A DNA stretch of 64,000 nucleotides, from contig JABHXF010000048.1 of NCBI GenBank assembly GCA_018657385.1, positions 3,681-67,680 of the forward strand, given 5' to 3'. Shown here piece by piece: positions 6,815 through 39,605 of the stretch (position 1 is its first letter; each line of letters opens with the position of its first letter). The stretch comes from Candidatus Woesearchaeota archaeon (GTDB taxonomy: Archaea > Nanobdellota > Nanobdellia > Woesearchaeales > DSVV01). The notes beneath the pieces were generated by a model. It was given only the letters and a program-made list of their open reading frames with translations. It was not told the origin of the DNA and made no database searches. Position numbers and translations under genes: made by a program.

Positions 6815-6866
6815 AATTTATCATAGATTATTATATAACCATAAATGGGCATAATTACAAATTAAA

Positions 6867-20300: not shown

Positions 20301-21109
20301 TCAATAATCCCAACTATTTGCCCACTACCATCTAAATTAAGAATTGAAGCAGTAGGATCAACTTCTACAATGTCTGAAGAATAATCATTTGTAATTGTTA
20401 ATGGTTGAAGCTCTTCAATAATCTCAACTTGATTAATATTTGTAATATAATGAATATATGCCTTTTTAACCTTTACATGGTAAATTAATGGTGATTCTTT
20501 ATAGTAAGATTCAGCAACCTGGTCAAGTAATGATTGTAGCGCAGCAGATTCTTCAAATGTTTGAATGTATAAATTAATTACTTCTTTATCTTTTGATTCT
20601 TCAATTGTTTGTTGTGTTTGTGTTGGTATTTTCAACTCTGGTTTATATTCAACTATATTTGCAACAAATTTTAATTTTAATATTTCTGGTATTTGTTTTG
20701 GATGTACTTTTACCTTATATGAAAATTCAGGAATATAATCAAAAAATTTAACATTAACTGTTTCTAATATCTGTTTCCATTCTTGTTTAACTGGGCCAAT
20801 TAATTGCAATATGAAATATTGTTGCTTAGATCTCTCTAATAATTGCATTTCTTGTTTGTTAGGTGTAATTTCTAAATTATTAATTAATATTGGATTAACT
20901 TGAAAATCTTGTTCTATTAGTTTAGAATTGATATTTTCTATTTCTGAGCTATCGATAGTTAGTATTTCATATTCTGGTAAGTTTTCATATGTTATACTTG
21001 GTTCTATAATTTTATTATTTGGATAATAAATAAAGAATAAACTGGCCAAGAGTATAATTATTATAACTATTATAGCTATTATTAAACCTAAAAAACCCCT
21101 CTTTTTCAT
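17363..21109 (-). CDS. Large secreted S8 subtilase with C-terminal beta-rich surface domains
   Basis: Triad motifs IIDSG, HGTH, SGTSMSAP; SAGN oxyanion; propeptide; likely start MKKRG|FLGLIIAII at 21109; many NxS/T sequons. Confidence 0.9.
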   Translation of the reverse strand: MKKRGFLGLIIAIIVIIIILLASLFFIYYPNNKIIEPSITYENLPEYEILTIDSSEIENINSKLIEQDFQVNPILINNLEITPNKQEMQLLERSKQQYFILQLIGPVKQEWKQILETVNVKFFDYIPEFSYKVKVHPKQIPEILKLKFVANIVEYKPELKIPTQTQQTIEESKDKEVINLYIQTFEESAALQSLLDQVAESYYKESPLIYHVKVKKAYIHYITNINQVEIIEELQPLTITNDYSSDIVEVDPTASILNLDGSGQIVGIIDSGVDTGVDANTEGDIHLDLDNRINSIYTISNVVCIIYGKSCTSADDLNGHGTHTSGSILGNGSASNSQYRGTAYNANLSFYAAGDDDGSRSIYIASLDSTMIQTSYDDGARIHSDSWGSSTTEYSTGLAKRMDSFMWDNKDILIVTSAGNDGSSLQTVRDPGTAKNVLTVGASQSNRSGSGYGTNINSLPSFSSRGPANDNRTKPDVVAPGTNIISTRSSKLSGGTQSCNGALAGNNNYSTCSGTSMSAPLTAGYVALVRENFIENINYQTPRSSLIKAMIINGAQDIGYGIPSNHSGWGRINLTNTLTPPYPKFFKYIDNTTGFSGSNQYTTHNIEIINTSSELKFTLVWTDYESTSSAAKNLVNDIDLIITSPNGSVYYGNNFEWPYNISQDRLNNVEQLILNSTNGEIETGTYTINISAFSISNTNQDYSIIISGGVNVSPTTSKFDGVTTLPNSGSRYYSESGFILENTTNGKIIWNENVYLSDMNFDDNIIMNSNNIWVNTTGLHSTLTTTNMTISLYNLSYEKPMPMKNGNTCNDCQLVSSTSGKVEFNATEFSSSGSNYSAVENSSIDIWDMRDNGKPYATDTIKYQNNEIYFYANYTNFSSSLAITTGTCTINYNDSTTATMNYNASINLYQYNRTFSNPTQTDYNISCSDTNFYQRNSTNSTTINNINAVYPWQPTNVSIQLNSNGTITINWNTTKDAGSYGLFYDSNLTKLWEFNDSSGPNITDINILELSYTDNINGTTKDSNGVTQRYYKVVALNSTSRTNTSNSTIGVLKKEIPVTTGNPNTGVELVIISIPLNVTDLSLSTLISTTSNIASNNDVIYTYNSTSSQPESVQFFTDFGWFGDFTSFNINQAYLFKPVTTAYNITFVGSVPITNTSFTIKQSTNIAGNSTELNLIGLNTPQKKCSLDTIFYDATNGDTIYRYNTATASYETVSFDGSNWSGDFDCINPGEGYEFRIVGSEYSINYER

Positions 21110-21185
21110 ATTTATTGTCATATTAGCCAAGTATTTAAAGGTTTTCATAAATATTTATATATCTATAGTGTTTAAATATAAATAT

Positions 21186-24669: not shown

Positions 24670-25158
24670 TTATAAAAAATAAACAAGTAATAATAAGAAT
24701 GTAAGTAAGTTTAAGTAGAAAAAAGTTTTTTCAAACAAACTTTTTGATTTAGTAAAACCTTTAATTCTATACTTGAATGGGTAAAACCAATAAATTCCTT
24801 GATAAGTAAGATTATCCAACAATAAATGTGAAAAATAACCAATAAAAAATGCAAAACTTAAGGTTAAGCTAAAAAATCTAGAAAAAATAAATATGAATAA
24901 GATTAATGCTGGCAATGAATGAAAAAATCCCCTATGTTTAAAAACATATCCCACTATTTTTATATTTTTTCCAAGTTTTGAAGAAGGATTATCTATGTCT
25001 GGTACCATTGAGCCAAATATAGCTATTAAACAAAAGATTAAGAAGTTTGTCGTGAAGATACTATTAGAAATACTTAATATCCCTAATAAATTATATGGGT
25101 TCATATAGATAATTAAACATAATACTAAAACAAAAATTCTATGTGTTCTAAACATCAT
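24670..25158 (-). CDS. Membrane-bound metal-dependent hydrolase (YdjM-like)
   Basis: TH, GSMVPDID, HRGFFHS, SHLLLD, G…YPF. Confidence 0.85.
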   Translation of the reverse strand: MMFRTHRIFVLVLCLIIYMNPYNLLGILSISNSIFTTNFLIFCLIAIFGSMVPDIDNPSSKLGKNIKIVGYVFKHRGFFHSLPALILFIFIFSRFFSLTLSFAFFIGYFSHLLLDNLTYQGIYWFYPFKYRIKGFTKSKSLFEKTFFYLNLLTFLLLLVYFL

Positions 25159-25199
25159 TTTAATTGTATTTGTTAATAATTTATATATGCTAATTTATT

Positions 25200-26195
25200 C
25201 TATGCAGGATTTGTTTTACTTGCCATTTTCTTGATCTCTTCTTCTGGATCAATATCTGTGAATACTAAATTACTAGTGAATTCAAGTCTATCAAACATTT
25301 GATTTTTCTTTGCTCTCCCAATTACTTTAATCATCTCACCAAGTAATTCATTCTTAACTTGCTCAAATGATTCAGTATTAACTCTATATCCTAAAATTTC
25401 ATCATGTGTTTTTTTAAGTAGGTTTTGGAGTTGGTTTTTGAAGAATACAATCCTTATAGTTGCACTACCATCATCTAGAAAAACATTAACAACATAATTA
25501 TAATCTAATTTGTCTTTTCCATGCTCTTGGCATGCTAAACCTTCTTCTGTTTGTTGAAGTTTTTTATTACAAACTGAACATGCTTCAAAAAATCTAATAT
25601 CAAATACCTGGACAATTGTACCTAATAATTCAACATTATTATCATCTTCTGTTAATTCTTTAATTGTTTTTCTTTCTCTTGTGAATTGTTTGACTTCCTC
25701 AATTTTTACATCACTTGGATTAATAATTAATTGTGATTTTGAATCAAGGTGTATTTCAACAAAATTATTATTCTTTTTTGCATTTGCGTCTCTGATTATA
25801 ACTACATCTCCTTCCTTAATATTGTCAAATTCTTTTGTTTGATCTCCCCATAATGTAATTCTTATTTGGCCTGTTTCATCACCAATAAAAAAACTAGCAA
25901 CTTTTCCTGTTGTTTCTCCTCTTTGAAATTCATATAATTCTAATTTTCTTGTAACTTTCCCTTGTGTTTCTAATCCACGCATACTAGCAAAGACTTCGTT
26001 AATCTTAACAACTCCTTTTTGCTCCATTACTTTTACACCTAACTCATTAGCAATTATATGGGCTGCACCATCCTTAGAAATTAAACCTGCAAGCTGTGCC
26101 ATTTTTTTTTCAACTTTATCATCAATCTCAGCTTGTGATAAACCTTTATCTTCAATAATCTTTTTTACAACAACATCATATGGTATATTAAGCAT
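25200..26195 (-). CDS. rpa: Replication protein A (OB-fold ssDNA-binding)
   Basis: GDETGQIRITLW OB fold, CSVC…CQEH zinc finger, LDDGSATIR. Confidence 0.85.
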   Translation of the reverse strand: MLNIPYDVVVKKIIEDKGLSQAEIDDKVEKKMAQLAGLISKDGAAHIIANELGVKVMEQKGVVKINEVFASMRGLETQGKVTRKLELYEFQRGETTGKVASFFIGDETGQIRITLWGDQTKEFDNIKEGDVVIIRDANAKKNNNFVEIHLDSKSQLIINPSDVKIEEVKQFTRERKTIKELTEDDNNVELLGTIVQVFDIRFFEACSVCNKKLQQTEEGLACQEHGKDKLDYNYVVNVFLDDGSATIRIVFFKNQLQNLLKKTHDEILGYRVNTESFEQVKNELLGEMIKVIGRAKKNQMFDRLEFTSNLVFTDIDPEEEIKKMASKTNPA

Positions 26196-26396
26196 AGTAA
26201 ACACCCCTTGTAGATAATAAAATCCTTACATGGATTTATTATATGTATTAATTATATATTTCAGCTATATATTAACTATATATCTTAATTATATGTCTTA
26301 TATTTAAATGAGAAATCCTTGATATTTAAATGGGTTATCATATTCTAACTTATATTATAGAGTATATACTTTCTTAATTTATTCCTTTCTAGGACC

Positions 26397-28838
26397 TTAG
26401 CTTAAACAACCCTGTTCATTATAATGATCTAAGAAACAATTAGCAGGAACACTACCGTGGCCTGCTTTTGTAACCTTAACCTCGGAATCAGGGTAATTAG
26501 GTAATTTAATTGAATCTTCTTGTGTGTTACCTGCATCTTGTTGGCTAGAATAATAAGAATGAATCTCTCCTCTTTTACTTGTTGGTAAGTTCGCAACTGT
26601 TGTACACCAAGTTCCATAACATGCATCAAAATAAATTGTAGATTTAATAGGTAAATGAGGTTCATCTAAAAACCCACCATCAATGTAAATATCTCTTATG
26701 GTTCTTCCACCATTACTGTGTCCCATAAATGAAATAGATGTTGGGTTTTGGTTTAATTCTTGTGTTATTGTTGCAATTGCTTCATCATAGAAACATTTAA
26801 ACTGTGATTCATCTGTTCCATCTCTTTTACCTTTCATCCAATCATGTCCACCATCACCCTTTTCTCCTTTGAATGGTCCAGACTTAATGGTGTATTCTGA
26901 AGAAATATGTTTATCTCCTCCTTTAAACCATACTAAAATAATATCTTTGCCTTGATTATGCAATCCTGAAACTTTTTCTGCTAATTTCTTGTTTTTTACA
27001 TATGATTCAACACCACTCATTTGATGGCCATGGAAATAAAAATATACTTCTGTATTTGATGTGATTGATTTAGGAAGAATAATTCCTTCTGTTCTATCTT
27101 CAAATGGCTCAACTTTGGACTTACATTTTGTTGTATATGTATAAAAATTAATATCAGATGGTATGTTATTAGTTATTTGAGTTAATTCACCTGGTGTTAT
27201 ATCTGTTATAGTTTGTTGTGTTTTTGTTGTAGTATCTGTTTGTTGTTCTATAGTTTTGTCTGGTTGTTTAAGAACATCTTTATCTTCTTTGATTTTCTTT
27301 ATTGTCTCAATATTAACATTCTTTAATGATGGGTCTTTAAAGCCAAGTGCAAATCTATAAATTAATGGTTTGTTTTTAATATCATTGTTTAAATAAACAT
27401 TTAGATTTTCATTTGATTTAGCACAAATTGTATAACTTGCTTTGTTTACATCTTTATCGCAAATTTCTAGATTAAGTTTTGGTGGGAAGTTTACTTCTTT
27501 GTTCTTGTTAATTTCTTTTTTCACACATTCTTCAATAATTCCAGCATTAATTGTAGTTATTTTTTCTCCATTTTCATCTATGTTTTTTTGTTCATGACAT
27601 TTTTCAACTTCTTTTGCAATTAAGAAAGATTTTTCTCTTAATTTTGCATATATGTCTAACTCATGAGTTAATGAAATACTAAAACTAGGATCAATTTGAT
27701 AAATAAATCTATCTTGAAAATCCATTGGTATTAATTCAGGAGTTGATAATTGTTTTGTATATTTTTCATTACCTAAATAATCTTGTAATCCTTTTTCACC
27801 AATTATTAGGCCACCATTACAACCATCAAAACCTTGATATTTTAATGCCTTAAGGACACCTTGTGCATAACCAACTCTGCCAACTGCTGATTTGTCTTTA
27901 ACACTATCAGAAAAGAGATGCATTATTACTTCAAAATCTTCTGTTGTGAGTTCCCACCAATTGAATTTTGAATAATCACCATTATATTTATTTTTTGTAA
28001 TTTCTCTTAATGCAATTTTTAGGGTGCCTTGACCATTATTATAGGCAAATGCTGTTCCCCAATAAAGGTTATGTGCTGGGATCTTATCATATGGTGGCTT
28101 TGATATAATTCCAAGATAAGAATTTAATTTTCCCCTTATATGTTCTGCTCCTGTGAATATTCCATCTTTTGGATTTCCTTTCATAAACTCATTTAGATTA
28201 CATTCACCTGTTTTTTCAAGTTTTTCACAATTTTCAATACTTGTTTGCATTATATTACAATATGCAGTTGAGCTTGATATCGTCCATTTTTCTTTTTCTT
28301 TGTCATAGTAATGACATTTTTTTTGGTCTTCCATACAATTATATTCATTACCTGGACCACCTGCAAACTTACATAATCCGCATCTTCCATTACATAATCT
28401 TTTTACTTTGACTTTTGAATTTGATCCATCTTTAATTGTGTAAGTTCCATAATCAAATGGCCCCCCTGCATTTTCTACTTTCATAATACCTATAATTAAT
28501 TCTTCAGGGATATTATAATGGGCAGAAGCTTCTTTTATATGTTGTTTATATGGTTGTATCTTAGCAAGGAACTTTTTAAACTTTTCTTCATTAAAATCTC
28601 TTCTTACTATTTTTTCAGGAAGATATTCTAAGTGGATCAATTCATTACACTGACCAAGATTAATTGTTTGTTGGTTAGTGGTTGGTTGGGATGGATTATA
28701 AACATTATGACCTGTAATTTTCTCATTGTTATTATTTAAATTAGAAATATTAACAAAAAGCAAAGCTATTACTATACATAAAACCAACATTAAAGCTAAT
28801 GCAAGGCTTTTCTTATCTATTAAATGTTTTGTATTCAT
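26397..28838 (-). CDS. Secreted lytic transglycosylase (SLT/lysozyme fold) fused to C-terminal alpha/beta hydrolase
   Basis: KKS|LALA TM; YKQHIKEASAHYNIPEELIIGIMKVEN, IMQ, AYNNG; YFHG…GHSNGG…FDACY…GH. Confidence 0.75.
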   Translation of the reverse strand: MNTKHLIDKKSLALALMLVLCIVIALLFVNISNLNNNNEKITGHNVYNPSQPTTNQQTINLGQCNELIHLEYLPEKIVRRDFNEEKFKKFLAKIQPYKQHIKEASAHYNIPEELIIGIMKVENAGGPFDYGTYTIKDGSNSKVKVKRLCNGRCGLCKFAGGPGNEYNCMEDQKKCHYYDKEKEKWTISSSTAYCNIMQTSIENCEKLEKTGECNLNEFMKGNPKDGIFTGAEHIRGKLNSYLGIISKPPYDKIPAHNLYWGTAFAYNNGQGTLKIALREITKNKYNGDYSKFNWWELTTEDFEVIMHLFSDSVKDKSAVGRVGYAQGVLKALKYQGFDGCNGGLIIGEKGLQDYLGNEKYTKQLSTPELIPMDFQDRFIYQIDPSFSISLTHELDIYAKLREKSFLIAKEVEKCHEQKNIDENGEKITTINAGIIEECVKKEINKNKEVNFPPKLNLEICDKDVNKASYTICAKSNENLNVYLNNDIKNKPLIYRFALGFKDPSLKNVNIETIKKIKEDKDVLKQPDKTIEQQTDTTTKTQQTITDITPGELTQITNNIPSDINFYTYTTKCKSKVEPFEDRTEGIILPKSITSNTEVYFYFHGHQMSGVESYVKNKKLAEKVSGLHNQGKDIILVWFKGGDKHISSEYTIKSGPFKGEKGDGGHDWMKGKRDGTDESQFKCFYDEAIATITQELNQNPTSISFMGHSNGGRTIRDIYIDGGFLDEPHLPIKSTIYFDACYGTWCTTVANLPTSKRGEIHSYYSSQQDAGNTQEDSIKLPNYPDSEVKVTKAGHGSVPANCFLDHYNEQGCLS

Positions 28839-28843
28839 TTGAT

Positions 28844-30025
28844 TTATTTACTCTCTTTTTTATAATGTGATTCAATGGCTTTATCTATCTCATCATCATG
28901 GTGGCCCTTTCTAATTAATTGCTGCTTTATTTTGGAATAATTTATACCTTGGTTGTGTAATTTATTTATTGTTTCATCTAATTTGTTTGTTTTAGTTTTC
29001 TTGAAAAATTTGAAAAGATTAATAATTATAACAACTAAAATAAACATGGCTAATATTATGAGATACATTTTGATGTTCCCCCCATCTATTATTTGTTCTT
29101 TTGTGTATTTTTCAATTTCTTTTTGGTCTATTTCTTTATCTTCTATCTCATTACTTTCAATTTTACCTTTTTCTACTTCTTCATCAATTACTTCATCAAG
29201 AATTTCATCTTCAATAAACTCATCTACTAAATCTTTATTGTTATTGTCATTATCACTTTCTACATAATCTAGGGCAACACAATAACTATCAATACAACAT
29301 TGTGTGTTATCTTCCATTTCTTGGTATAAACCTTGTTTACATTTTTGTTCAGAATTACATTTAATGCCATCATATTCATACATACAATAATGATTTAAAT
29401 CATTGTAATAACAAACATCTTCATTATCTGGATCATTACATATATTACAATCTTTATCTAGATTATTACAGTCTGGATCACATTTGTTATCTTGGATTAA
29501 ATCACAATAATTATCATTTGTTCCAGTAGGACAATCATTTTGACATGTTAATGAATTTTCATAAACTATAACCTCTTTATTATAACAATCATCTTCTGTG
29601 CAGTATTCACAAACATTATTGTTATTACAGAATTCAATTTGTTTTTCAATAATTACTTTTTCATTCTTGAAAATCTTAATTTGTTTAGTTTTAGAATTAA
29701 ATGAAATTGCTGTTTTATATGTTAAACCTATCTCTTTAACAATTAAATTATTAAACTGATCATAACTATTAATTTGGTATATTGGTTCATCATCAAAATT
29801 ATCCATTATTCCAGTATAAAATGCTGTGTTTTCATCTAATTGGTAATAAAAGTTATTATTATCTAAAACACCAAAATCAACTAATTTTTCTTCCTTTTCA
29901 TTCTGGACATCTTGAATTTCAAAATAAACTAATTCTTCACTAAATATCATAGGTAAAATTAATAATAAAACTAGTAAATGCAGTAAAATACAAATTCTAA
30001 TTGTTTTTATTGTGTTTTTATTCAT
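28844..30025 (-). CDS. Secreted Cys/Asp-rich membrane-anchored protein
   Basis: Signal peptide, CNNNNVCE…TCQNDCPTG…DNYCD…CDPDC repeats, acidic linker, C-terminal TM and cytoplasmic tail. Confidence 0.7.
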   Translation of the reverse strand: MNKNTIKTIRICILLHLLVLLLILPMIFSEELVYFEIQDVQNEKEEKLVDFGVLDNNNFYYQLDENTAFYTGIMDNFDDEPIYQINSYDQFNNLIVKEIGLTYKTAISFNSKTKQIKIFKNEKVIIEKQIEFCNNNNVCEYCTEDDCYNKEVIVYENSLTCQNDCPTGTNDNYCDLIQDNKCDPDCNNLDKDCNICNDPDNEDVCYYNDLNHYCMYEYDGIKCNSEQKCKQGLYQEMEDNTQCCIDSYCVALDYVESDNDNNNKDLVDEFIEDEILDEVIDEEVEKGKIESNEIEDKEIDQKEIEKYTKEQIIDGGNIKMYLIILAMFILVVIIINLFKFFKKTKTNKLDETINKLHNQGINYSKIKQQLIRKGHHDDEIDKAIESHYKKESK

Positions 30026-30071
30026 TTTTTTGTTTTTATTGTGTTTTGTTTATTTTTATTCTACTTGCTTT

Positions 30072-32306
30072 TTATTCTTTACATTGGTTATCATCTATTG
30101 GGCAATAAATTCTAACATGATAATGGTCTTTATGGCTTTTCCAATGTTTAAGTTTTGAAAATGCTTTTTTAATTATTGTTTGGTCTGGTTCACTTTGTTG
30201 TGCATATTCTTTTAATTTATTAATCAATTGCTGGTCAAGGTAAATTGCTTTAATGTTTCCTGATGCTAGCAAAGCTTTGATTAATATCCAGTTTGCATTT
30301 GCATCAAAATATTTTATTTTTGAACCTGTTGCATCTTCAAAATCATTGTAAACTTTATTGTTCTTATTGAAATATAAACCCATATCCACATCTCTACCAC
30401 TTTGATGAGATGCATGACCACTTAATTTTCCACCTTCTTTATCACTTAAATCATGAATATCTATTCTTGCACCTATTGCTTTTGCTGTTATACAACCTGC
30501 TTTCTCTATCATATTAACTAATTCAATAGTCCCATAAAATCTATTTCTTGAATGTTTATGTGAATAATAATGTGTTGTTTCTTTTTTAATAGTAGCAGGA
30601 TTCTTTAACATACCATTGGATGTATGACCAACTGACTCTGAGTTAAATGGGAATTGTGAAATTTGACAGCCAGAATCATCTATTGCAGGATATGCCACAT
30701 CAATAGTTGATTGTGTGATTAAATTTGCTTGATCTTGTTTATAACCATTTGGATAGTTTGATGATCTATCAATAACATTCTTGATAATCTCTTGTTTAAA
30801 TTCTTCTGAAGCAATTTTAGGAGCTCCTGCACCTAAATCTAAAGGAGTTACTTTGTAACCATGAACATTAGCTTGTTTATCAATGTCAATACTGAATAAA
30901 AGTGCCTTTCTTGCTTCTCCTCCTGTGTTTAATTTTGATATTTGAGAATTTTCGATTCCCTTTCCTGACAAAAGATTACCTAAACTATATACAATTACTT
31001 TTTGTTTGCTATTTTTTTCAATAAACTCAATCCCTTGTACACGATGTGGGCCATGACCTATTACTAAGTCTGCACCTGCATTTATAGCTGCTCTTGAGCC
31101 TGAGATATGGTCTTGGGGAGTATCATCACTTGATGTTCCCCAATGTAATGATGCTATTACAATATCTGCTCCTGCTTGTCTTGCTGATGTTATGTCTTGT
31201 TGAAGTTTGTTTTGACCAAATATATTTACTAATTCATTAACATTTCCACAATATTGTTTATCATGGCTGCCTTGTTTACTATGGCTATTAACATATTCAG
31301 TATAACAAACAAACCCAACTTTAATTCCATTATCAGCTGTTACAATTGTTTGTGTATTTTGTCCAGGTTCACTAGAAGTTTTAGTTGCACCACAATATGC
31401 AATATTGTTTTGTTCAAGATAACTTATTGTGTCTTGGACTCCTTGCTTTCCAAAATCACCTGCATGATTATTTGCTAATGTTACAACTGCTATATTGCTT
31501 TGTTTCATATAATCTGCATGTTTGGGCAGAACTCTAAAATGGTATATTTCTTTTAGTTTGCCATCTATCATATATTGTTGATATGGTAATTCTGTAATTA
31601 AAGTTTCAAGGTTAATAAAGACTAAAGCATTTTGGAATTCTTGTAATATATTACTAAATGGGTTTGTTGTTTGATCTAATGTTGTTGCATCTCCACCAAA
31701 TACTAATTTTATAGTTTCACCTGAAGAAACAGTCATTGTTGTGGCTTGTTCTTGTTTAATTTGGCTTTCAAAAGAGAAATATGTTGGAACATCTACTTTA
31801 TCTCCTTCAATTGCAATTTCATCTTTTGCAACACCAATAATGTTATTGTCTATAAATTTGTATTCATAAAAATTTTGAGGGATATTAAAATGTTCATCTA
31901 AGTTAAAATAACTATCAAAACCTTCTAAATATTTGTAAAATTGTGTATTAAACATAGTTTTAAAATCTGTTTTATAATTTTTTGGTAAACATAACTTGCC
32001 ATCAACATACCAATAAGGGACTCCATTAAATTCTCCACATTCTGTACTGGCAATGCCGCCCTTTAATGCAAGATTATATTCTGTATCCCTAACAGCATGT
32101 TTTGCACTAACATCAACATAATTAACTAAATTATCTCCTTCTTGTGCTGTTTTCATTACTTCTGTGGCAGCTTCACCCATTGTTCTTGTTTTGCCTTCTA
32201 AATCTACAATTATTAACATTAGCATAATCATTGAAAATATAACAACCCCTAATAAAATTATCATGAACTCATGTCCTGCTTTTTTATTTTTTATTTGGTT
32301 CTTCAT
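30072..32306 (-). CDS. Pilin-like protein with CapA (PGA_cap) metallophosphoesterase and MepA-type murein endopeptidase domains
   Basis: KKAG|HEF TM; GD, INLE, LANNHAGDFG, SLHWG, GHGPH, YSLGN; SVGHTSNGML, YGT, DLS..EGG, GHASHQSGRDVD, HKDHYHVR. Confidence 0.8.
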   Translation of the reverse strand: MKNQIKNKKAGHEFMIILLGVVIFSMIMLMLIIVDLEGKTRTMGEAATEVMKTAQEGDNLVNYVDVSAKHAVRDTEYNLALKGGIASTECGEFNGVPYWYVDGKLCLPKNYKTDFKTMFNTQFYKYLEGFDSYFNLDEHFNIPQNFYEYKFIDNNIIGVAKDEIAIEGDKVDVPTYFSFESQIKQEQATTMTVSSGETIKLVFGGDATTLDQTTNPFSNILQEFQNALVFINLETLITELPYQQYMIDGKLKEIYHFRVLPKHADYMKQSNIAVVTLANNHAGDFGKQGVQDTISYLEQNNIAYCGATKTSSEPGQNTQTIVTADNGIKVGFVCYTEYVNSHSKQGSHDKQYCGNVNELVNIFGQNKLQQDITSARQAGADIVIASLHWGTSSDDTPQDHISGSRAAINAGADLVIGHGPHRVQGIEFIEKNSKQKVIVYSLGNLLSGKGIENSQISKLNTGGEARKALLFSIDIDKQANVHGYKVTPLDLGAGAPKIASEEFKQEIIKNVIDRSSNYPNGYKQDQANLITQSTIDVAYPAIDDSGCQISQFPFNSESVGHTSNGMLKNPATIKKETTHYYSHKHSRNRFYGTIELVNMIEKAGCITAKAIGARIDIHDLSDKEGGKLSGHASHQSGRDVDMGLYFNKNNKVYNDFEDATGSKIKYFDANANWILIKALLASGNIKAIYLDQQLINKLKEYAQQSEPDQTIIKKAFSKLKHWKSHKDHYHVRIYCPIDDNQCKE

Positions 32307-32308
32307 TT

Positions 32309-32893
32309 TTAGTGGCAATTAATTGTTTCTAATGGTGCGTTTTTATGAATGCTTCGCATACATGAACATGTATTTATTGTTACCTTTAATGCATTGTTTT
32401 CTGGTAAAGGTAAATATGCTGTTTCTTCATTTGTGCTTTTTGAACACCAATTATATGTTAATATTTCTTCCCCCTTTATTGTTTTTACATCTAAATCAAA
32501 ACATTCACCAACATAATAATCACTTGATGTAGATTCTAAATTATAATTTTCAATAAAATTGGTAATTAAGCTACATGTTGCTTTGTTTTGTTCTTCTATT
32601 GATGAAAATAATTTTGCTTTTTCTCTAGAATAATAATGTTGAATTAATAGATCCCCAAAAGTTACATCTTCATATGAAGGTGTTTTTAACATTGTTAATA
32701 ACTCTCTTTTTGTCTGAATATTATCTAAATTAACATTAATTTTTTCTTCTTTTTTCTCTCCCACTAACATATTTACAACAAACAAGCTAATAGTAATAAT
32801 CAAAACAATTGATACAGTAATTAAAATATCTGTAGCTAATGTTTCCTGTGCCTTCTTATTTTTCCTTATTTTTCTAAATTTGTTTTTATTCAT
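32309..32893 (-). CDS. Pilin-like protein (class III signal peptide)
   Basis: KKA|QETLATDILITVSIVLIITISLF. Confidence 0.7.
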   Translation of the reverse strand: MNKNKFRKIRKNKKAQETLATDILITVSIVLIITISLFVVNMLVGEKKEEKINVNLDNIQTKRELLTMLKTPSYEDVTFGDLLIQHYYSREKAKLFSSIEEQNKATCSLITNFIENYNLESTSSDYYVGECFDLDVKTIKGEEILTYNWCSKSTNEETAYLPLPENNALKVTINTCSCMRSIHKNAPLETINCH

Positions 32894-32915
32894 TTTTTGA
32901 GTTTATTTGTTTTTT

Positions 32916-33512
32916 TTATGATTTTGGACTTAATACGGTCATATGCAAGGTTGCAGGATAATTTACAACTTTTAACATGCCATTTTCAACATTCTCTTTT
33001 CTTAAAACTACATTTATTGCTTTTTCTACTCTAATTGCATTTTGTTGTGAACCACTTGTCCAACCTGAAACAACTAAATATTCTTCAAAACTTTTCTTGT
33101 TATAATAAAACATTTTTAATTGCTCTAAATCTGTATCTTGAATATGGTCAGGAAAGGTTAATGAAAAATTTGATGTAATTAATGGATAATCTCCAAAATC
33201 AAATGCCTTGTTTAATCTTTTTTCTATTTCATTTGGATCAACAATATCTGCAAAATTAATGATTCCAGGATAAACTCTCCCTGTATCTTGATTTCTATAA
33301 CTTAAACCATTTTTTGAATAAAGTAATTGTTCAACAAACAATTCAACTTCTTCGTTTTGAATATTGGTATCTTTTTCAATGAATAAAAATACCATGAATG
33401 CAATTGAAAACAAAACTAATCCTAAAACAAATATTCTAAACATTACCATCATTAATTGAAAGTATGCCACCATTGATTTTTTGTTCTTAAATTGTTTTTT
33501 TGTTTTTGTCAT
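32916..33512 (-). CDS. Pilin-like protein (class III signal peptide)
   Basis: KKS|MVAYFQLMMVMFRIFVLGLVLFSI; LLYS.NGLSY…RVYPGII. Confidence 0.65.
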   Translation of the reverse strand: MTKTKKQFKNKKSMVAYFQLMMVMFRIFVLGLVLFSIAFMVFLFIEKDTNIQNEEVELFVEQLLYSKNGLSYRNQDTGRVYPGIINFADIVDPNEIEKRLNKAFDFGDYPLITSNFSLTFPDHIQDTDLEQLKMFYYNKKSFEEYLVVSGWTSGSQQNAIRVEKAINVVLRKENVENGMLKVVNYPATLHMTVLSPKS

Positions 33513-33593
33513 GCTTATTTTTTCCTATGTTTTTTCTTTTTTTTATGTTTGTTTATTCTTTGTTTAGTTAATTCTATGTTGTTTTTTTATTTT

Positions 33594-36209
33594 TTATTCG
33601 CCAGTTAATGAAAAATGCATATAATCTTTTTGATTAGTTTCCCAGTCTCCTCCCCAAATCCATCCTATCTGATCCATAATTACATATGCATATGAATTTT
33701 TTGTTATTGTTCCTTCAATCTCCTCTTGTCTTTCAGGATTTTTTTTACCTGCAATTGATAATGTGCATTTTTCAACATTCCATTTTTTGCACTTATTGTA
33801 TAATCCATTATAATCACGATTAATATCTATTGCAATTCCATATGGGTGTTCACCAAAATCTTTGCCTTTATTATAAGTACGACCTTCCCTAAATCCATCT
33901 ATTTCATAAATAGGGAATCCAGAATTAACAATATTTTGTAATGCTGCTTCTACTAACTTTTTATATTTCCAGCAAACTTCGATTGTATGGCCTGCAATTG
34001 TAATAGTTTCTTGATCTTCTCTACATAATGTACAACCAGAATCATGAATCTCTTCTCCAGTAATTGTTGAGTATGATTTCTTTTTTAGACCTTTATCATA
34101 ATATGTGCATGTTTTAGGTATTGTTCTTGTTTTTTCTGTTTCAATTGTTGATTCTTGTGAAAGTTCTGGTTGAATTAATGGTTCTAGTAAAATAGGATTA
34201 TTACTTTCCATACTAAAAAATTCTTTTGGAATGTTGCCGTGTTTTGTTTTTGTGTATATGTAATTAACATTGCTTTTATCCTTCAAAGATTTACCTTGTT
34301 CATCTGTGTCTGTATCTGGTTTTACAATAATATTAAATTCTACATTAGGATTATTATTTATTGCTGTTTCATATGCTTTTTGAGCCCAATTACCATAACT
34401 AGCATCTAAAAAATCAATCCTATTAACTTTAAAGCCAGATTCAGTAATTCTATATAACGGTACACCACCACCACTATGTCCTTTGATTGTAATTGAACCT
34501 ACTTTTACTCTTGAATCTAATTGACTTAAAACATCTAAAACATTTTGATGTAATATGTCTATACTTTCATCTTTAGCTGGATACATCCAATAACTATCAT
34601 AACCTGTACCAGTACAACCTCCTGCTCTAGGGCCTCCACTAAATGGATAAACTAAAATTACATTTCTTTTTGGATCTTTTCCAAGTTTTTCAGTTTCTTC
34701 TAATACTTCTTTTAATATTTCTAATCCTGAATCATGTGTAGATCCTTGATCTTTTGGGCATTTATTATATGAATCCTTGTTTGGATTAGTATACCATTCC
34801 TTTTTTTCACATAAACTTGTTCCTGTTATACAAGCAGGAACTTGTTCATTAAGTAAATAACCATGGCTGCCATGGAAATAATAAATTATTTCAAATTCTC
34901 TACCACAATCAGAATTTTCAGGAATTACAACTGCAACATCTCTATTTGCATTACCACTTAACTTTCCAACCCATGTTTTACCTTTGATCTTTGCAGTTTC
35001 TTCAACTAACGTTTGTTTAGGTGTTCCTCCAACTAATGATTTGTAGCCATCACTATTACATAAAATACTTGTTTGAACAGATACTTTTGATGCTTCATAT
35101 TTTTCAATTCCTTTTTTAATTGCTTGTGCTATCTTTGATTTAGCATCTTCTGTGTATAATGGGTTGTTTTCAAGATTTAAATTTCCTAATTCAAGTTTGA
35201 TAGCAAGTTTACTTTTTGTATTAGTGGTATCAATTGTTTGTTGATTTACAAATAAAGTAGGATCTTGTTGTTGTGTGGTTGTTAATACTTTTTTATCACT
35301 TATTTCTGGGAATACTTTTATGATCTCATCTAATATGGTTGTTGCAAGGAAACTGCTTTGTTCATTGTTTTCAGGAACATATGCATAAATTGGATTGCTA
35401 GTACTTCCTCCACTATTATCAAGAGTTTCTAGGCTCATTCCAATGCTTAATATTAAATCAGCTTTTTTAGGTATTAAGTTTAATCTTTTTTCCATTGTAA
35501 AATCTTGTTGTGGTTGTTTTTGTGTTCTTGCTTGAATAATTGTTTTTTCTAATGAAAGAAGTTGAGCAAGATTAGCAGTGATCTCATAACTTAAGAAATG
35601 TTCTGCTCCTGCTTTTCCTTGTTTTAAATCTTGTATTCCTGAACTAAAATGACCACCTACTGCATCTATTACTAATAACTTAATTGGTTGTACATTTGAT
35701 GTAAGCTTATATTCTGTAGAAGGAGATTCTTGAATTAATGCAGTATTATCATGTTTTAAGCCAACCATTCCTTTTGCATGTATTGAAAATGCATTATTAA
35801 AATTAGTTAATGTAAATCTTGTTGCATTTGTTAAAATATAAAGCCCATGTTCTAAATTGTTATTGTAAAAATAAGGGTAACTTAGTTTTGAGTAGAAATT
35901 TTCAGAAATTGTAATTTGGTTATTGTAAAATTCAAAATTATAAGTATCTTCTTCATCAAACACATGTAAAAAATCAAACATACTATCTCCTGCTTTTTTT
36001 GGAACATACTGGTATGCAACATTACCTGGCACAGATTGTATTGTATTACTAAGTAAACTTAGATCTCTTGTAATTAATTTTTTCTCATATAGTTTATTAT
36101 CTTCTAAGGAATAAAGGTAAAAAGATACCCCTCCAAATACAACTAAACCTAGAATTAGTTCTATGATTAATAGCTTCGCTATACTAATACCCCTTTTATT
36201 TTTAAACAT
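33594..36209 (-). CDS. Pilin-like protein with degenerate amidase_3, alpha/beta hydrolase and M15 peptidase domains
   Basis: KRG|ISI TM; VIDAVGGH…E…RLN…ADLILSI…LELGNL…IAQAIKKGI; YFHG…GHSGGG…LDASY…H; EHPYGIAIDIN…WGGDW…KDYMHF. Confidence 0.78.
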   Translation of the reverse strand: MFKNKRGISIAKLLIIELILGLVVFGGVSFYLYSLEDNKLYEKKLITRDLSLLSNTIQSVPGNVAYQYVPKKAGDSMFDFLHVFDEEDTYNFEFYNNQITISENFYSKLSYPYFYNNNLEHGLYILTNATRFTLTNFNNAFSIHAKGMVGLKHDNTALIQESPSTEYKLTSNVQPIKLLVIDAVGGHFSSGIQDLKQGKAGAEHFLSYEITANLAQLLSLEKTIIQARTQKQPQQDFTMEKRLNLIPKKADLILSIGMSLETLDNSGGSTSNPIYAYVPENNEQSSFLATTILDEIIKVFPEISDKKVLTTTQQQDPTLFVNQQTIDTTNTKSKLAIKLELGNLNLENNPLYTEDAKSKIAQAIKKGIEKYEASKVSVQTSILCNSDGYKSLVGGTPKQTLVEETAKIKGKTWVGKLSGNANRDVAVVIPENSDCGREFEIIYYFHGSHGYLLNEQVPACITGTSLCEKKEWYTNPNKDSYNKCPKDQGSTHDSGLEILKEVLEETEKLGKDPKRNVILVYPFSGGPRAGGCTGTGYDSYWMYPAKDESIDILHQNVLDVLSQLDSRVKVGSITIKGHSGGGVPLYRITESGFKVNRIDFLDASYGNWAQKAYETAINNNPNVEFNIIVKPDTDTDEQGKSLKDKSNVNYIYTKTKHGNIPKEFFSMESNNPILLEPLIQPELSQESTIETEKTRTIPKTCTYYDKGLKKKSYSTITGEEIHDSGCTLCREDQETITIAGHTIEVCWKYKKLVEAALQNIVNSGFPIYEIDGFREGRTYNKGKDFGEHPYGIAIDINRDYNGLYNKCKKWNVEKCTLSIAGKKNPERQEEIEGTITKNSYAYVIMDQIGWIWGGDWETNQKDYMHFSLTGE

Positions 36210-36349
36210 GATAATATATTTATATATTTATAGATTTATATAGTTTTTGTTATATATTACTAATTATAATATAACTTAATTTATAATTATAATCTTTTAT
36301 ATATTTCATTTAATATTAAATCTATTAATTAAAGAACATTCTTTACTAT

Positions 36350-38278
36350 CTATTTTGCTTTGAAGAAGCTAGTTGATTCTTTATGTAAGCAAAGCTCCCC
36401 ACTTTCTAATTTTACAATACTTAAATCTTTATCTTGTGGCCCAATGATTATTTGATCAATATTTGAATTATAATTTCCTAAATGATCAACATAACAATCA
36501 ATATTTATGGGATATTTTTTTTGACCAATTGTTTTGTATAATTTTATTGTTTCTTTCTCAGGTCCGTTATATTCTAAATATGCTATTCCTTCATCAATTC
36601 TTATTATCCATCCCTTGCTTTTTTCTTTTGTACTTGCCACTAATGTGTTTACAACAGGTTCATTACAACTAAGTTTGTTGCTTTTTACTGATTCTTGAAT
36701 CTTATTATTAAGAATTTCTAATTTTATTTTCTTTCCTCCTTGATTAATTTCATCATCTTCATCATAAATCTCAATTATTTTTTCTTCAGTTAAACTAAAT
36801 AAATTAACAAAACTATGGCTCTTATCCTTTATAAAAATATGTGGGGTAAAATATAATAAATATCTTCCATCTTCTTCAACTTTGAAAATATTAATATTTC
36901 TAACATCAAAATCATCTAAAATATATGTGTTTGGGCCTTCTTGATTGGCAATTATTTCAGAAATAATTGTTTCTTGTCCCTTCTTTATTTGGATATATGG
37001 TTTTATATTATAATCAACTCTTATTTCATAAATATAATTGTTTAGTTGTTCTGTAACATATGCATCATCTGTATAGTCTGAATCATAATCATCTTCTTGG
37101 GTAGTAGAATCTGTGTTTGTTTCTTCTTCCTCATCATCTGTATATGGTAATTCATAATTATATCTTCCTTCCCCATCTGCATATTCAATCATTTCATTTA
37201 CTTTTTCAATTCTATCTTCCCAAAATGGTATGTTCTCTTCATTTTCTCCTGATGGGAATTCCATGCAATAGCCTGCTTCAACTGAATATGTTGAATCAAT
37301 AGTCATTAAGTAGTCTGTCTGCAAATTATCATTGATTTGGTCACAAAAAATAAGATGTTGTTCAGGTTCTTCTAATTTTAATCTGAACATTTCAATTAAA
37401 TTGTGTGAATATGGTCCATCGCTTTCTAACCACTTGAATTTTCCAGCAGAAGTTTCAAGGGCATAAGTTTTAATTTTTTTAGGGATTCCTTGTTCTAATT
37501 CATATACTTCAATAAGGTTCTCTTCTATTTCATAATTGCTTGTTATAGGATAATAATAAATTCTTGGTTTTAATTCTAATCCTTCATATATATTAATTGC
37601 TTCTTGATTAAGTTCATCAGTAAGACCATGTGTTTCTAAACTACATTTTTGTATTGCATTGTTTAGATTTTCTATTGTTTTTAAGGATTGTTTTTCATCT
37701 AATCCTGCAAGACAATCACAGTATCCATGTCTACATGGTCCTGCATCACATAATGCTACTTCTTCATTAGCTCTTCTTATCATTAGACTAAAAAATTTCT
37801 TTTTATCTTCGTTATATTCTTTTTGATAAAGTTCTACATATGGTGCTTTGTTCCATCTATACTGAGAAAAACTAAGAACCATATTATCTACATTAGACTT
37901 AACTTTTTTACAAATAATTGGTGTTTCACATTCATCTAATTTTCCTTCACATAAACATAAACAATCTGAATTTATACATTCTTGATCCTCAATATTTATT
38001 TTATTTTTAGCACTCATGCTATTTACTATTGAATATTCTTCTGGATCACCAAGATCAATTGAATATTGTAAAATCGGGAAATGTGGTGGGAGATTTTGGA
38101 TGGTGTCAATTAATCCTAAAAAATTGCTTTTAACATTTTCTTCATTATTATCTTGAAAGAATATATTATAAATTGCAGCAGCAAGAAAAAAGATTACCAC
38201 CAAAACAATTAATCCTCTAATTAAATTAACTAAGAATTCTAAATCTATTAATCCTTTTTTGTACCTCTTTTTTGACAT
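36350..38278 (-). CDS. Large pilin-like protein (class III signal peptide), Cys-rich N-terminal part, acidic linker
   Basis: KKG|LIDLE (Glu at +5) + TM; CLCLC motif. Confidence 0.7.
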   Translation of the reverse strand: MSKKRYKKGLIDLEFLVNLIRGLIVLVVIFFLAAAIYNIFFQDNNEENVKSNFLGLIDTIQNLPPHFPILQYSIDLGDPEEYSIVNSMSAKNKINIEDQECINSDCLCLCEGKLDECETPIICKKVKSNVDNMVLSFSQYRWNKAPYVELYQKEYNEDKKKFFSLMIRRANEEVALCDAGPCRHGYCDCLAGLDEKQSLKTIENLNNAIQKCSLETHGLTDELNQEAINIYEGLELKPRIYYYPITSNYEIEENLIEVYELEQGIPKKIKTYALETSAGKFKWLESDGPYSHNLIEMFRLKLEEPEQHLIFCDQINDNLQTDYLMTIDSTYSVEAGYCMEFPSGENEENIPFWEDRIEKVNEMIEYADGEGRYNYELPYTDDEEEETNTDSTTQEDDYDSDYTDDAYVTEQLNNYIYEIRVDYNIKPYIQIKKGQETIISEIIANQEGPNTYILDDFDVRNINIFKVEEDGRYLLYFTPHIFIKDKSHSFVNLFSLTEEKIIEIYDEDDEINQGGKKIKLEILNNKIQESVKSNKLSCNEPVVNTLVASTKEKSKGWIIRIDEGIAYLEYNGPEKETIKLYKTIGQKKYPINIDCYVDHLGNYNSNIDQIIIGPQDKDLSIVKLESGELCLHKESTSFFKAK

Positions 38279-38309
38279 TTTTAATTTTAATCCCTAAGCT
38301 TAGAATAAT

Positions 38310-38591
38310 TTAAGTTACTGTTTGTTCACCTTGTTCTTCACAATGTATTTCTTTTCCATTAACTGTAATTGGTTCATTATATATTCCATCTTCACCACAA
38401 ATGATATTTTCTTTTTTTGTAAAATCACATCTGCATTGTGGATGAACTATCCATGGTTCAAGTTTATCTTTTTGTTCATTTGCCCAAGCAGTTGATCTTG
38501 CATAAAAAACTATTACTCCTCCCACTAATATCATAATTAATAAAAATAAACCAAGGGTTTGTGGTATTGAAAGTTGTGCTTTTTTTCTCAT
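38310..38591 (-). CDS. Small pilin-like protein
   Basis: KKA|QLSIPQTLGLFLLIMILVGG; 4 Cys. Confidence 0.7.
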   Translation of the reverse strand: MRKKAQLSIPQTLGLFLLIMILVGGVIVFYARSTAWANEQKDKLEPWIVHPQCRCDFTKKENIICGEDGIYNEPITVNGKEIHCEEQGEQTVT

Positions 38592-38608
38592 TTATTCCAC
38601 CTGTATTA

Positions 38609-38983
38609 TTATTGTTTCTTTTTACAACATCTATTACTACCAGTGCAATCTGCTGGTCCTAGATCATCAATAGATTCACATGTACTTTCACAAAAACCAC
38701 CGCTTGCTTTACAATTGCTGTAACAACATACCTCATCTGCTTTTGAACATTTGAAATCTATTTTTTGTGAGTAATACCATTTTGAATTATCTTCGCCTGG
38801 ACAATTATCTTTAGCAACACATGCTCCTCCTGGCTTTGATTCACAACCACTTATACTCATGGAAAATAATGATATCTTTCCAGAAAATACAATTATTAAT
38901 ACAACTACAACTACTAATACAATAACAGCTCCTGCTACCATGTTTAAACTTAAACCTTGAGCTTTTTTATTCATTTTGTACAT
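38609..38983 (-). CDS. Small Cys-rich pilin-like protein
   Basis: KKA|QGLSLNMVAGAVIVLVVVVVLIIVF; two C..GG.C…C…C…CC repeats. Confidence 0.75.
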   Translation of the reverse strand: MYKMNKKAQGLSLNMVAGAVIVLVVVVVLIIVFSGKISLFSMSISGCESKPGGACVAKDNCPGEDNSKWYYSQKIDFKCSKADEVCCYSNCKASGGFCESTCESIDDLGPADCTGSNRCCKKKQ

Positions 38984-39047
38984 GTTATCACCTTTTAATC
39001 TTCTTTTCTTGAATAATTTTGATTATTATTTGTTTTATAAATCTGGA

Positions 39048-39605
39048 TTATCCTGTTAACTTAATTGATAATTGTGCATAATAATTACTATCAGGATAAT
39101 TTTGTTTATATTCCTTAACTAATTCATTTGCTTCTTCACTCATACCTTTTTTAATATAAATACTTGTTAAATCTGAATATGCTGTATCAATCATTTGTTG
39201 TTGTGCATTTGGTTTTTTCTGAATGAAAAGTCTATAATGTAACATTGCCTCATCATATTTATTAGTTTCAAAAAAAGATTTAGCTATATAATAACGTTGA
39301 GTATCAACAATATTGTCTGAGCCTGGAGAATTAATTAATTCTTGGTATTTTGTAGCTGCTGAATCATAATTATGTTGTTGTGCATATAATTTTCCTTCAT
39401 TTGCTAATGTGATGAAGTGTTGTTCTTGTTGTTTTGATTCTGCTAATTGATCTTCATAATCTAATGGTGTGTCTACAATATATTTTGTGATTCCAGGCAA
39501 CCAATTGACTAAAATCAGATAACTTAAACCTGCAATAGCTATAATGCTTAAAACTAATCTAGCTGTTTTTCCTAACATTAATTCTTGGGCTTTTTTATTT
39601 CTCAT
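39048..39605 (-). CDS. Pilin-like protein with TPR domain
   Basis: KKA|QELM TM; YDSAATKYQELINSP, YYIAKSFFETNKYDEA…, YPDS TPR motifs. Confidence 0.75.
   Translation of the reverse strand: MRNKKAQELMLGKTARLVLSIIAIAGLSYLILVNWLPGITKYIVDTPLDYEDQLAESKQQEQHFITLANEGKLYAQQHNYDSAATKYQELINSPGSDNIVDTQRYYIAKSFFETNKYDEAMLHYRLFIQKKPNAQQQMIDTAYSDLTSIYIKKGMSEEANELVKEYKQNYPDSNYYAQLSIKLTG

Follow-up and report, generated by a model that had tools for sequence, protein, structure and literature searches.

Within the window, the whole 64,000-nucleotide stretch of woesearchaeal DNA analysed here, positions 33594..36209 of the minus strand hold a single unbroken ORF encoding P0001, an 871-aa protein in which a pilin-like carrier is followed by an Amidase_3 fold, an alpha/beta serine hydrolase and an M15C-type peptidase. 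The initial annotation had described a tri-domain protein; its three domains and pilin-type leader were borne out, while the count of modules rises to four with the carrier at residues 8-150. All of the motifs it quoted were found in the ORF, namely IDAVGGH (at 181), GAEH (with E203), LSIG (with G257), LELG (with E340), HPYGIAID (with H788/D795), WGGDW (at 852) and DYMH (with D862/H865), to which GHSGGG (with S579) can be added. Its view that the architecture belongs to no named family agrees with NCBIfam, which gives none for P0001. Searched as a whole against PDB sequences, the protein had no match at E 1, and no wall-binding Pfam domain was found in it at E 0.1. The fusion is not confined to one assembly, because P0002, encoded on a different contig, has the same architecture and 67% identity over the full length; by domain, identity is lowest in the amidase (57%, compared with 71-74% for the others). 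Contigs assembled from four runs span the gene row piecewise. One of them crosses the joint between hydrolase and M15 with zero differences, and the amidase-hydrolase joint is bridged by none of the pieces among the matches listed.

The N-terminus of P0001 was recognised, from its sequence and a heuristic scan, as a class III (prepilin-type) signal (36189..36209, minus strand), in which the basic leader MFKNKRG precedes a hydrophobic helix and cleavage is predicted after G7. The heuristic scan and the alignment agree on the short basic leader, the G/A at -1 and the hydrophobic helix, and the K-[KR]-[GA] leader motif is conserved in the carrier-family alignment; the Pfam class III model gave no match to P0001. 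The carrier itself (35760..36188, minus strand) was modelled as a long kinked N-terminal helix followed by a beta sheet. Among its neighbours in the Atlas are class III proteins of archaea (TM 0.53-0.61) and GspI/PilV of bacteria (TM 0.48), although all of the neighbours (TM 0.43-0.61, searched within a larger model) fall below the naming bar of the tool. Class III leaders also anchor non-polymerising proteins, and the substrates of PibD include binding proteins (PMC4858521). A filament subunit of about 870 aa would be bulky, which counts against a pilin reading.

The second module (residues 175-373; 35091..35687, minus strand) has the Amidase_3 fold and appears to be a pseudo-enzyme. Pfam Amidase_3 (PF01520) matched residues 200-370 at E 1.5e-5 and 25.6 bits, just below the cut-off of 27; in a six-frame search of the genome the same domain scored 29.6 bits, above that cut-off, and the P0002 copy scored 31.1 bits. 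A single-sequence fold of the whole protein reached a pLDDT of 35 and was set aside, and residues 1-375 were modelled instead with AlphaFold from a 146-row alignment (mean pLDDT 81.8). Residues 174-375 of this model match solved Amidase_3 enzymes (Foldseek E 9e-10), including CwlD in a VIA comparison (Z 20.5, rmsd 2.6, 179 residues aligned), which confirms the amidase_3-like fold proposed in the initial annotation. The same source had observed that both glutamates are kept and the zinc histidines lost, and this is indeed the case: E203 and E340 are present, Gly occupies the zinc-His positions 185 and 257, and the ligand set of His-Glu-His plus catalytic Glu is therefore incomplete. P0001 thus shares its fold, first zinc Glu and catalytic Glu with the Amidase_3 enzymes CwlD, CwlV, LytH and AmiA/B/C, whereas both zinc histidines are absent from it, and because of their absence the domain is likely dead. 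Removing one His from Chlamydia AmiA abolishes its activity, and an Amidase_3 enzyme made inactive by mutation of a His retains wall binding (PMC13104611). Besides E203 and E340, the P0001 copy retains R228, R242 and N343, as does P0002.

The third module (residues 395-668; 34206..35027, minus strand) is an alpha/beta serine hydrolase that belongs to an esterase-like family without a name and has a predicted triad of S579-D602-H657. These three residues are invariant across 13 homologue rows, the G-x-S-x-G elbow, acid and His follow in fold order, and the domain resembles Atlas alpha/beta hydrolases at TM 0.57-0.68. Since no family scored above its cut-off and no solved relative was found at E <0.01, any substrate is a guess. 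Relatives of the hydrolase match PF00756 weakly, and assignment to the CE1 esterases was rejected, the best PDB profile match having E 0.014 over 34 columns only. The wall de-O-acetylase Ape belongs to the GDSL/SGNH esterases (PMC6174289); membership of Ape was likewise rejected, as the SGNH/GDSL fold is absent and an alpha/beta fold with GHSGG is found instead, and the hydrolase may act like Ape though outside its family. The hydrolase profile was positive in one of 301 genomes, and the query P0163 found no further match among 401 genomes. The module is nevertheless rare rather than unique in the order to the P0001 genome, because Woesearchaeota-labelled records carry diverged copies. In all eight archaeal or probably archaeal carriers, the hydrolase is joined to a murein-hydrolase domain (weakly scored in one case, and five of the carriers were located via their M15), and three bacterial copies have weak PG_binding_1 matches.

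At the C-terminus (approximately residues 720-871; 33597..34052, minus strand) lies an M15C-type zinc peptidase with R774, H788, D795, D862 and H865, matched by Pfam Peptidase_M15_4 on residues 785-867 (E 6e-13, 49.6 bits, cut-off 25). The HxxGxAxD and DxxH motifs had been reported as kept, and H788, D795, D862 and H865 align accordingly with Ply500/LysB4; the roles of the residues are taken from work on these two enzymes (PMC6354061), R774 being equated with Arg50 by position alone. The likeness to LysB4 and Ply500 extends to the His-Asp-His ligands, the catalytic Asp, the upstream Arg and WGGDW (PMC6354061), whereas the P0001 domain differs in its Cys-rich insertions, in its weak similarity over the whole domain (E 0.07 to Ply500) and in the residue before HxxGxAxD, which is Gly where SxHxxGxAxD has Ser. 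After P0002, the five next-best M15 relatives share 53-58% identity; all also have the hydrolase, and they bear ordinary signal peptides together with M23, M74 or beta-lactamase-like domains. Hydrolase and M15 likely form a mobile cassette that was grafted onto P0001 at a later stage, judging from these sequence relationships. A transfer of the M15 from the downstream slot of G011 or G002 was rejected, as their M15 domains were unmatched at E 0.01.

P0001 is a member of a row of minus-strand genes. The first gene of the row (39048..39605) encodes a pilin-like leader with TPR repeats (Pfam and leader scan), and is followed by two small pilin-like genes of 93 and 124 aa (38310..38983), which from the leader scan and synteny could encode filament subunits, and by a 642-aa pilin-like carrier with a class III-like leader, whose cargo has no Pfam or NCBIfam match (36350..38278). 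On the other side of P0001 lie F4, a conserved pilin-like protein of 198 aa (32916..33512), and a gene for a pilin-like protein of 194 aa, whose slot is conserved, identified by leader scan and synteny (32309..32893). These are followed by a pilin-like carrier with CapA/PGA_cap (Pfam E 1.4e-51) and an M74 (MepA-type) murein endopeptidase (3e-21; 30072..32318), then by F13, a Cys/acidic-rich membrane protein of 393 aa found by synteny, in which the leader scan detected no class III leader (28844..30025), and by an 813-aa protein with an SLT-like domain (E 0.0017, below cut-off) and a second, diverged hydrolase (E 2e-12; 26397..28838). The row has a fixed gene order and contains small cargo-free pilins.

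Synteny, with weak complex support, marks F4 as the likely partner of the carrier. It was found no more than three genes after the orthologue in 39 of 40 neighbourhoods, which had been picked non-randomly on score and on the lengths of contig and ORF, and the carrier-F4 complex scored 0.58 against 0.01 for the best control, in a range where most predictions are wrong unless the complex was likely from the outset. The F3 and F4 profiles could be aligned solely over the N-terminal helix (probability 47%). One record, P0041, unites the carrier-amidase family and F4 and retains an internal leader; it may be a read-through artefact and was left out of the counts. Genes of the row carry other murein hydrolases in 26 of the 40 neighbourhoods (25 of them over the Pfam cut-off), and recognised cargo was absent among the scanned proteins of the remaining 14. 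The cargo of the relatives comprises SLT, muramidase, glucosaminidase, Amidase_2/3, M15, M23, M74, NlpC/P60 and 3D domains, along with phosphoesterase, NAGPA and GH3 domains, and five of the 40 have GDSL/SGNH esterases on the row.

The genome also encodes an assembly ATPase and an A24 prepilin peptidase, both over cut-off and outside the pilin row, and a candidate platform protein is indicated by a sub-cut-off match and a membrane-type gene adjoining the ATPase. The 333-aa prepilin peptidase stayed below the cut-offs for EppA (21.9 against 450) and FlaK (67.4 against 330). Murein hydrolases outside the row comprise SLT on C49 and M23 on C55. No PBP transpeptidase was found in this genome, which is 90% complete, and synthesis of its own wall was therefore rejected as the purpose of these enzymes. 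Its only Mur-ligase match we take, from its motif, to be FolC. Two Glyco_tran_28_C matches were also observed in the genome.

Of 401 genomes in the order, which is woesearchaeotal going by the labels of relatives, 277 have a carrier joined to the amidase fold, so that the gene is near-core there; the combination was also found in 236 of 301 genomes sampled from the phylum. The full amidase site is present in 40 of 146 homologues and both histidines are absent from 83. Trees of the family were built under the LG model; the starred branches require at least nine changes of amidase state and a single His-less clade is rejected (p-AU 3.6e-11). The amidase histidines have been lost repeatedly within the family. 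The His-less domain remains under purifying selection, with dN/dS of 0.12, 0.16, 0.23 and 0.49 in the four of six His-less pairs that were not saturated (the pair G256/G191 keeps the first His and stands outside these six). Cleft residues decay in the His-less homologues while the core persists, R242 falling from 90% to 48% and N343 from 85% to 49%, and the median size of the domain falls from 186 to 157 aa. An orthologue from the same genus stops after the dead domain (374 aa), the closest relatives by carrier, in G011 and G002, have dropped the amidase entirely, and L079 combines an eroded amidase with a distant M15, a parallel graft. No published case was found in which a dead Amidase_3 had been retained repeatedly and under selection.

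Taken together, P0001 is probably a pilin-like protein of a very small marine DPANN archaeon, with a dead amidase, whose tail, with a likely wall esterase and a stem-peptide peptidase, is directed against bacteria. Prepilin peptidase would cut after G7, and the carrier helix would join F4 in a minor-pilin (tip) complex. The trees suggest that the ancestor comprised the carrier and a working amidase, which would then have died many times with its fold retained, and the P0001 lineage would later have gained the cassette at its end, restoring wall-cutting to the slot. The M15 is predicted to cut L-Ala-D-Glu like LysB4 and Ply500, and the serine hydrolase would most likely strip ester groups, for example O-acetyl groups, an obstacle to lytic transglycosylases. 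These enzymes would be carried by a type IV filament up to a contacted bacterium, whose wall is the probable target because no transpeptidase gene was found in the genome. The dead fold may well have persisted chiefly as a scaffold or spacer, the reading to which we lean slightly, and residual wall binding in the P0001 copy is possible, if somewhat doubtful. More speculatively, and with a good deal less confidence, the filament tip of most Woesearchaeales may face bacterial prey or hosts with an ancestral amidase that in many lineages turned independently into a non-cutting wall receptor, an archaeal counterpart of PGRPs, and with exchangeable cutting cassettes, in P0001 an undescribed wall de-esterase of alpha/beta fold together with M15, shared with epibiont-like bacteria.

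The strongest rival, rather unlikely in our view, is a membrane-anchored scavenger, in which the class III helix is only a tether and the enzymes obtain amino acids and sugars from wall debris left by dead bacteria, with no live bacterial host. Class III leaders are present on substrate-binding proteins (PMC4858521), and the wall of dead cells has been proposed as a source of amino acids for DPANN (PMC11537232); the phosphoesterase, NAGPA and GH3 domains on the row of the relatives, and the hydrolase-M15 tail on ordinary secreted proteins, would fit this too. The fixed gene order with small cargo-free pilins, however, is the pattern that a filament with minor subunits should show, and a dead domain is retained under selection. 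The quick turnover of cargo among relatives is also easier to reconcile with shifting targets than with digestion in bulk.

Distinctly less probable is that the dead amidase serves specifically to bind peptidoglycan, aiming the M15 and setting target specificity. This was close to the initial proposal that the amidase is there to position the peptidase, a claim that found no support, since carrier and amidase are an old and nearly order-wide combination and the tail is a separate cassette. There is no enzyme tail to aim in 19 of 24 His-less orthologues (from 41 neighbourhoods), although purifying selection in the His-less pairs and the five residues kept in P0001 and P0002 are in its favour, as is the wall binding of the inactive His mutant (PMC13104611). 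The decay of R242 and N343 and the shrinkage of the domain in His-less rows argue against such a role, as do its lower conservation between P0001 and P0002 than that of any other domain and its loss from the closest carrier relatives in G011 and G002. Wall-hydrolase folds without zinc ligands are kept for binding or regulation in non-catalytic PGRPs and in dead-LytM factors (EnvC). These folds are different (Amidase_2 and M23), and binding, shown for them, is hypothetical for the P0001 amidase.

It is very improbable that the amidase is alive with H187, H204, E203 and E340 as a rearranged metal site: all four are common to P0001 and P0002, and a His follows the first Glu in five of 146 rows, all without the normal histidines, but H187 is missing from the other four of these rows, the modelled loop 189-196 is of low confidence and the second His site is Gly. 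The least probable reading, in which the substrate is another envelope polymer such as a poly-gamma-glutamate capsule or an archaeal host coat, can draw on the CapA-family domain in the neighbouring gene and on a hydrolase without known substrate, but the cargo of the relatives spans glycan, amide and stem-peptide murein bonds.

Returning to the armed-pilin reading, no system of this kind was found in print. The modular type IV pilins PilB and PilC of S. sanguinis, probably minor or tip subunits, share with P0001 the class III leader, the small pilin module, the short linker and the grafted modules (PMC8179133). P0001, by contrast, is archaeal, with murein hydrolases and a pseudo-enzyme as cargo, and the terms archaea, peptidoglycan and amidase are absent from the main text of that paper. 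The archaeal PGHs Woldo and Danwoldo, prominent in Nanoarchaeota, are likewise bacterial-type wall-cutting domains in archaea (PMC12352652). Proteins entered that survey only with a known wall-binding domain, and the signals it describes are Sec/Tat, whereas P0001 has a pilin leader and lacks such a domain; neither 'pilin' nor 'M15' occurs in the main text of the survey. Large murein transglycosylases of Woesearchaeota and Pacearchaeota come from the same lineage and have led to the same idea, namely that the archaea attach to bacteria or attack them (PMC8204110, PMC9723730), although GH23/SLT alone is described and 'pili' and 'amidase' do not occur in the main texts. The archaeal T4F system 1/Epd pilus of Nanobdellati resembles the row in its many pilins apart from the ATPase and platform genes, while no wall-enzyme cargo is described for it ('peptidoglycan' occurs 0 times; PMC13705601). 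Whether DPANN archaea have bacterial hosts was left open in the conclusion of PMC8204110. The gene occurs in around seven of every ten genomes sampled in the order, and nature offers it intact, dead, deleted and re-armed. The soluble domains of the P0001 family can thus be tested without culturing the archaeon, and their binding preferences could indicate the bacterial partner.

P0001 is a single ORF of 871 amino acids (33594-36209, minus strand), in which a basic leader and pilin-like carrier (residues 8-150) are followed by an Amidase_3 fold (175-373), an alpha/beta hydrolase (395-668) and, as the fourth module, an M15 domain. All of the motifs quoted in the initial annotation are present, and Pfam places Peptidase_M15_4 well above cut-off; Amidase_3 was also matched, but with a score at the edge of the cut-off. 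The homologue P0002, encoded on a different contig, is laid out identically (67% identity). The protein is, on balance, probably a re-armed minor pilin that combines an old carrier, a dead but kept amidase fold and a recently gained cassette of hydrolase and M15, and whose row of pilin-like genes is directed at bacterial walls.

The front half (carrier and amidase) is an old core gene. Matches to P0001 were found in 25 of the 27 other genomes of its family, nearly always confined to residues 1-375 or less. Within the order, a profile of 18 rows had matches in 277 of 401 genomes (a tally including seven marked unpublished), mostly once per genome, and for a profile of 146 rows the count was 236 of 301 genomes sampled from the phylum (two marked unpublished); among the latter's matches listed from other orders of the class, only the carrier was covered. 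Nothing beyond these two tallies depends on the unpublished genomes. In the representative library, 826 proteins score E 1e-10 or better.

The amidase model overlays CwlD, CwlV, LytH and AmiB, and among solved structures 15 amidases are hit by the family profile. Across 146 homologues, 40 keep all four active-site residues, 83 lack both zinc histidines and 23 are intermediate. Starred branches of a tree built without the active-site columns force at least nine changes of amidase state, and a topology uniting the His-less sequences in one clade is rejected (p-AU 3.6e-11); the trees are unrooted, use the LG model and contain some long branches that meet. These changes are read as losses, since four residues are unlikely to have been regained time after time, and the site would have been lost repeatedly. 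The dead fold is still under selection: in the four His-less pairs out of six that are not saturated, its dN/dS is 0.12, 0.16, 0.23 and 0.49, near or somewhat above that of the carrier (0.10-0.27).

In the His-less homologues the frequency of R242 falls from 90% to 48%, that of N343 from 85% to 49% and the median domain length from 186 to 157; the core residues and the conserved Cys are retained. Five of 41 orthologues consist of the carrier only. This erosion of the cleft, together with the carrier-only orthologues, favours a putative scaffold role across the family. In P0001 itself the dead domain could possibly still bind the wall, since its Glu, Arg and Asn residues are kept; in Chlamydia AmiA a single His change is described as abolishing activity with wall binding retained (PMC13104611). 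Two cysteines of this region (35085-35760), kept in more than 90% of the family alignment and likely a disulfide tying the linker to the amidase fold, are lost in P0001 and, judged by eye, in P0002.

The initial annotation had proposed a dead, wall-binding amidase that positions an active stem-peptide peptidase. The Amidase_3 fold holds and is likely dead, Gly occupying both zinc-His columns; positioning a peptidase is not supported as its purpose, since 19 of the 24 His-less orthologues in 41 neighbourhoods have no tail and the tail of P0001 appears to be a graft. A same-genus orthologue ends at 374 amino acids. Apart from P0001, the tailed His-less orthologues are L079 (with a distant M15, a parallel that arose independently), L080 (muramidase and Amidase_2, the amidase fold apparently replaced), L081 (a 3D domain) and L082 (no Pfam match). 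Behind P0002, the next five closest M15 relatives (53-58%) have ordinary signal peptides, and two of these clusters carry a Woesearchaeota label. All five, which were found through M15, also carry the hydrolase, plus M23, M74 or beta-lactamase-like domains, suggesting that hydrolase and M15 travel as a pair. Just upstream of another orthologue, L119:1-1971 has an M23-like C-terminal domain with 43% identity to that of the secreted P0163, which again points to exchange between secreted proteins and those of the pilin row.

Residues H788, D795, D862 and H865 of the M15 domain correspond to the zinc ligands and base of LysB4 as assigned in PMC6354061, which makes L-Ala-D-Glu cleavage likely; R774 is probably a further equivalent. 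The hydrolase has an alpha/beta fold and an invariant Ser-Asp-His set, and its closest relatives (29-42%) are bacterial. Hydrolase genes adjoin murC and divIC in three of nine metagenome loci (the related contigs L094-L096), which by gene content look to us like Patescibacteria. Weak PG_binding_1 matches, below cut-off, occur in three bacterial hydrolase copies, with such a lead on two of these contigs. GDSL esterases occur in the row of five of 40 relatives, and Ape, of that family, is described as removing the O-acetyl groups by which lytic transglycosylases are blocked (PMC6174289). From these analogies a wall esterase may be guessed, the weakest step of the reading.

P0001 lies within ten same-strand genes (26397-39605) with intergenic gaps of 2-140 bases; nine of the genes pass a class III leader heuristic, compared with 71 of 2467 ORFs flagged genome-wide. 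In 40 neighbourhoods of orthologues, picked on score, contig span and ORF length, the recurrent order is small pilins, carrier, P0001 orthologue, F4 (a pilin-like protein), F9, cargo carrier, RPA and YdjM, with F4 at most three genes after the orthologue in 39. RPA and YdjM also stand behind the row here (24670-26204), as does RPA in about 32 of the 40 relatives and YdjM in most, making this a fixed link. A complex of carrier and F4 was predicted with a score of 0.58 (best control 0.01), with runs sharing at least 83% of contacts and partner pLDDT of at least 76. This mark was attained by 116 of 157 solved pairs versus 2 of 215 mismatches, but the part of its range up to 0.60 contains 18 of the solved pairs and both mismatches, so the prediction gives weak support for pairing.

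Cargo domains among 160 proteins scanned include SLT, muramidase, glucosaminidase, Amidase_2, M15, VanY, M23, M74, NlpC/P60 and 3D, and in 26 of the 40 neighbourhoods one or more such domains occur in addition to the amidase of the anchor itself (25 above cut-off). In the row of P0001, one neighbour carries CapA and M74, and another a weak SLT and a second copy of the hydrolase. The CapA/PGA_cap metallophosphatase-fold domain (30072-32318) sits between carrier and M74; in relatives this slot is often taken by a metallophosphoesterase or NAGPA domain. One 1477-aa row protein (L082:10969-15399) combines metallophosphoesterase, GDSL, M15_4, M23 and NlpC/P60. The cargo slot at L088:9132-11237 holds a second Amidase_3 domain (E 2.8e-25) with M74, in a genome whose anchor amidase apparently lacks the first His.

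The window encodes PolD, PCNA-like, RPA and RNase J genes, and its DNA was found in 18 studies, in 20 runs of marine or seawater origin, of which 11 are flagged as candidate sources. One family member is labelled Ca. Woesearchaeota, as are the Atlas clusters nearest to the carrier. The genome (1.54 Mb, 90.4% complete) encodes an ATPase of type IV filaments and a prepilin peptidase of family A24; a search of it for PBP transpeptidases found none.

It is established that some archaea have wall hydrolases able to kill bacteria (PMC12352652); earlier work noted SLT proteins in Woesearchaeota (PMC8204110, PMC9723730, PMC11537232), and bacteria are known to have modular pilins (PMC8179133). Peptidoglycan is not mentioned in the available portions of two archaeal filament surveys (PMC13705601, PMC4858521), nor pilins in those of a 2026 bacteriocin preprint. 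No description of pilin-borne wall hydrolases in DPANN or of dead Amidase_3 domains was found in the literature covered, mostly freely available main texts; such proteins may appear in the tables of PMC12352652, PMC8204110 and PMC13705601.

Outside the row, the window has two more pilin-like genes (5894-7799; 306 and 310 aa), as well as a subtilase of 1261 aa (17363-21148) whose leader resembles class III. On contig C49 of the same genome, a second pilin-like row (L112:564-13132; 820, 2226, 156, 360, 172, 199 and 92 aa) gave no Pfam match. Its sizes and leaders resemble the upstream half of the locus, which several relatives have in one piece with the P0001 row; in this genome the locus may thus be split. 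Contig C55 encodes a stand-alone M23 peptidase domain (L114:2174-2905; 244 aa from the first ATG) with no evident signal. Also on C49, a 1097-aa protein (L113:983-4273) has an SLT domain just above cut-off, and downstream of it are three genes with lipoprotein-like or membrane leaders.
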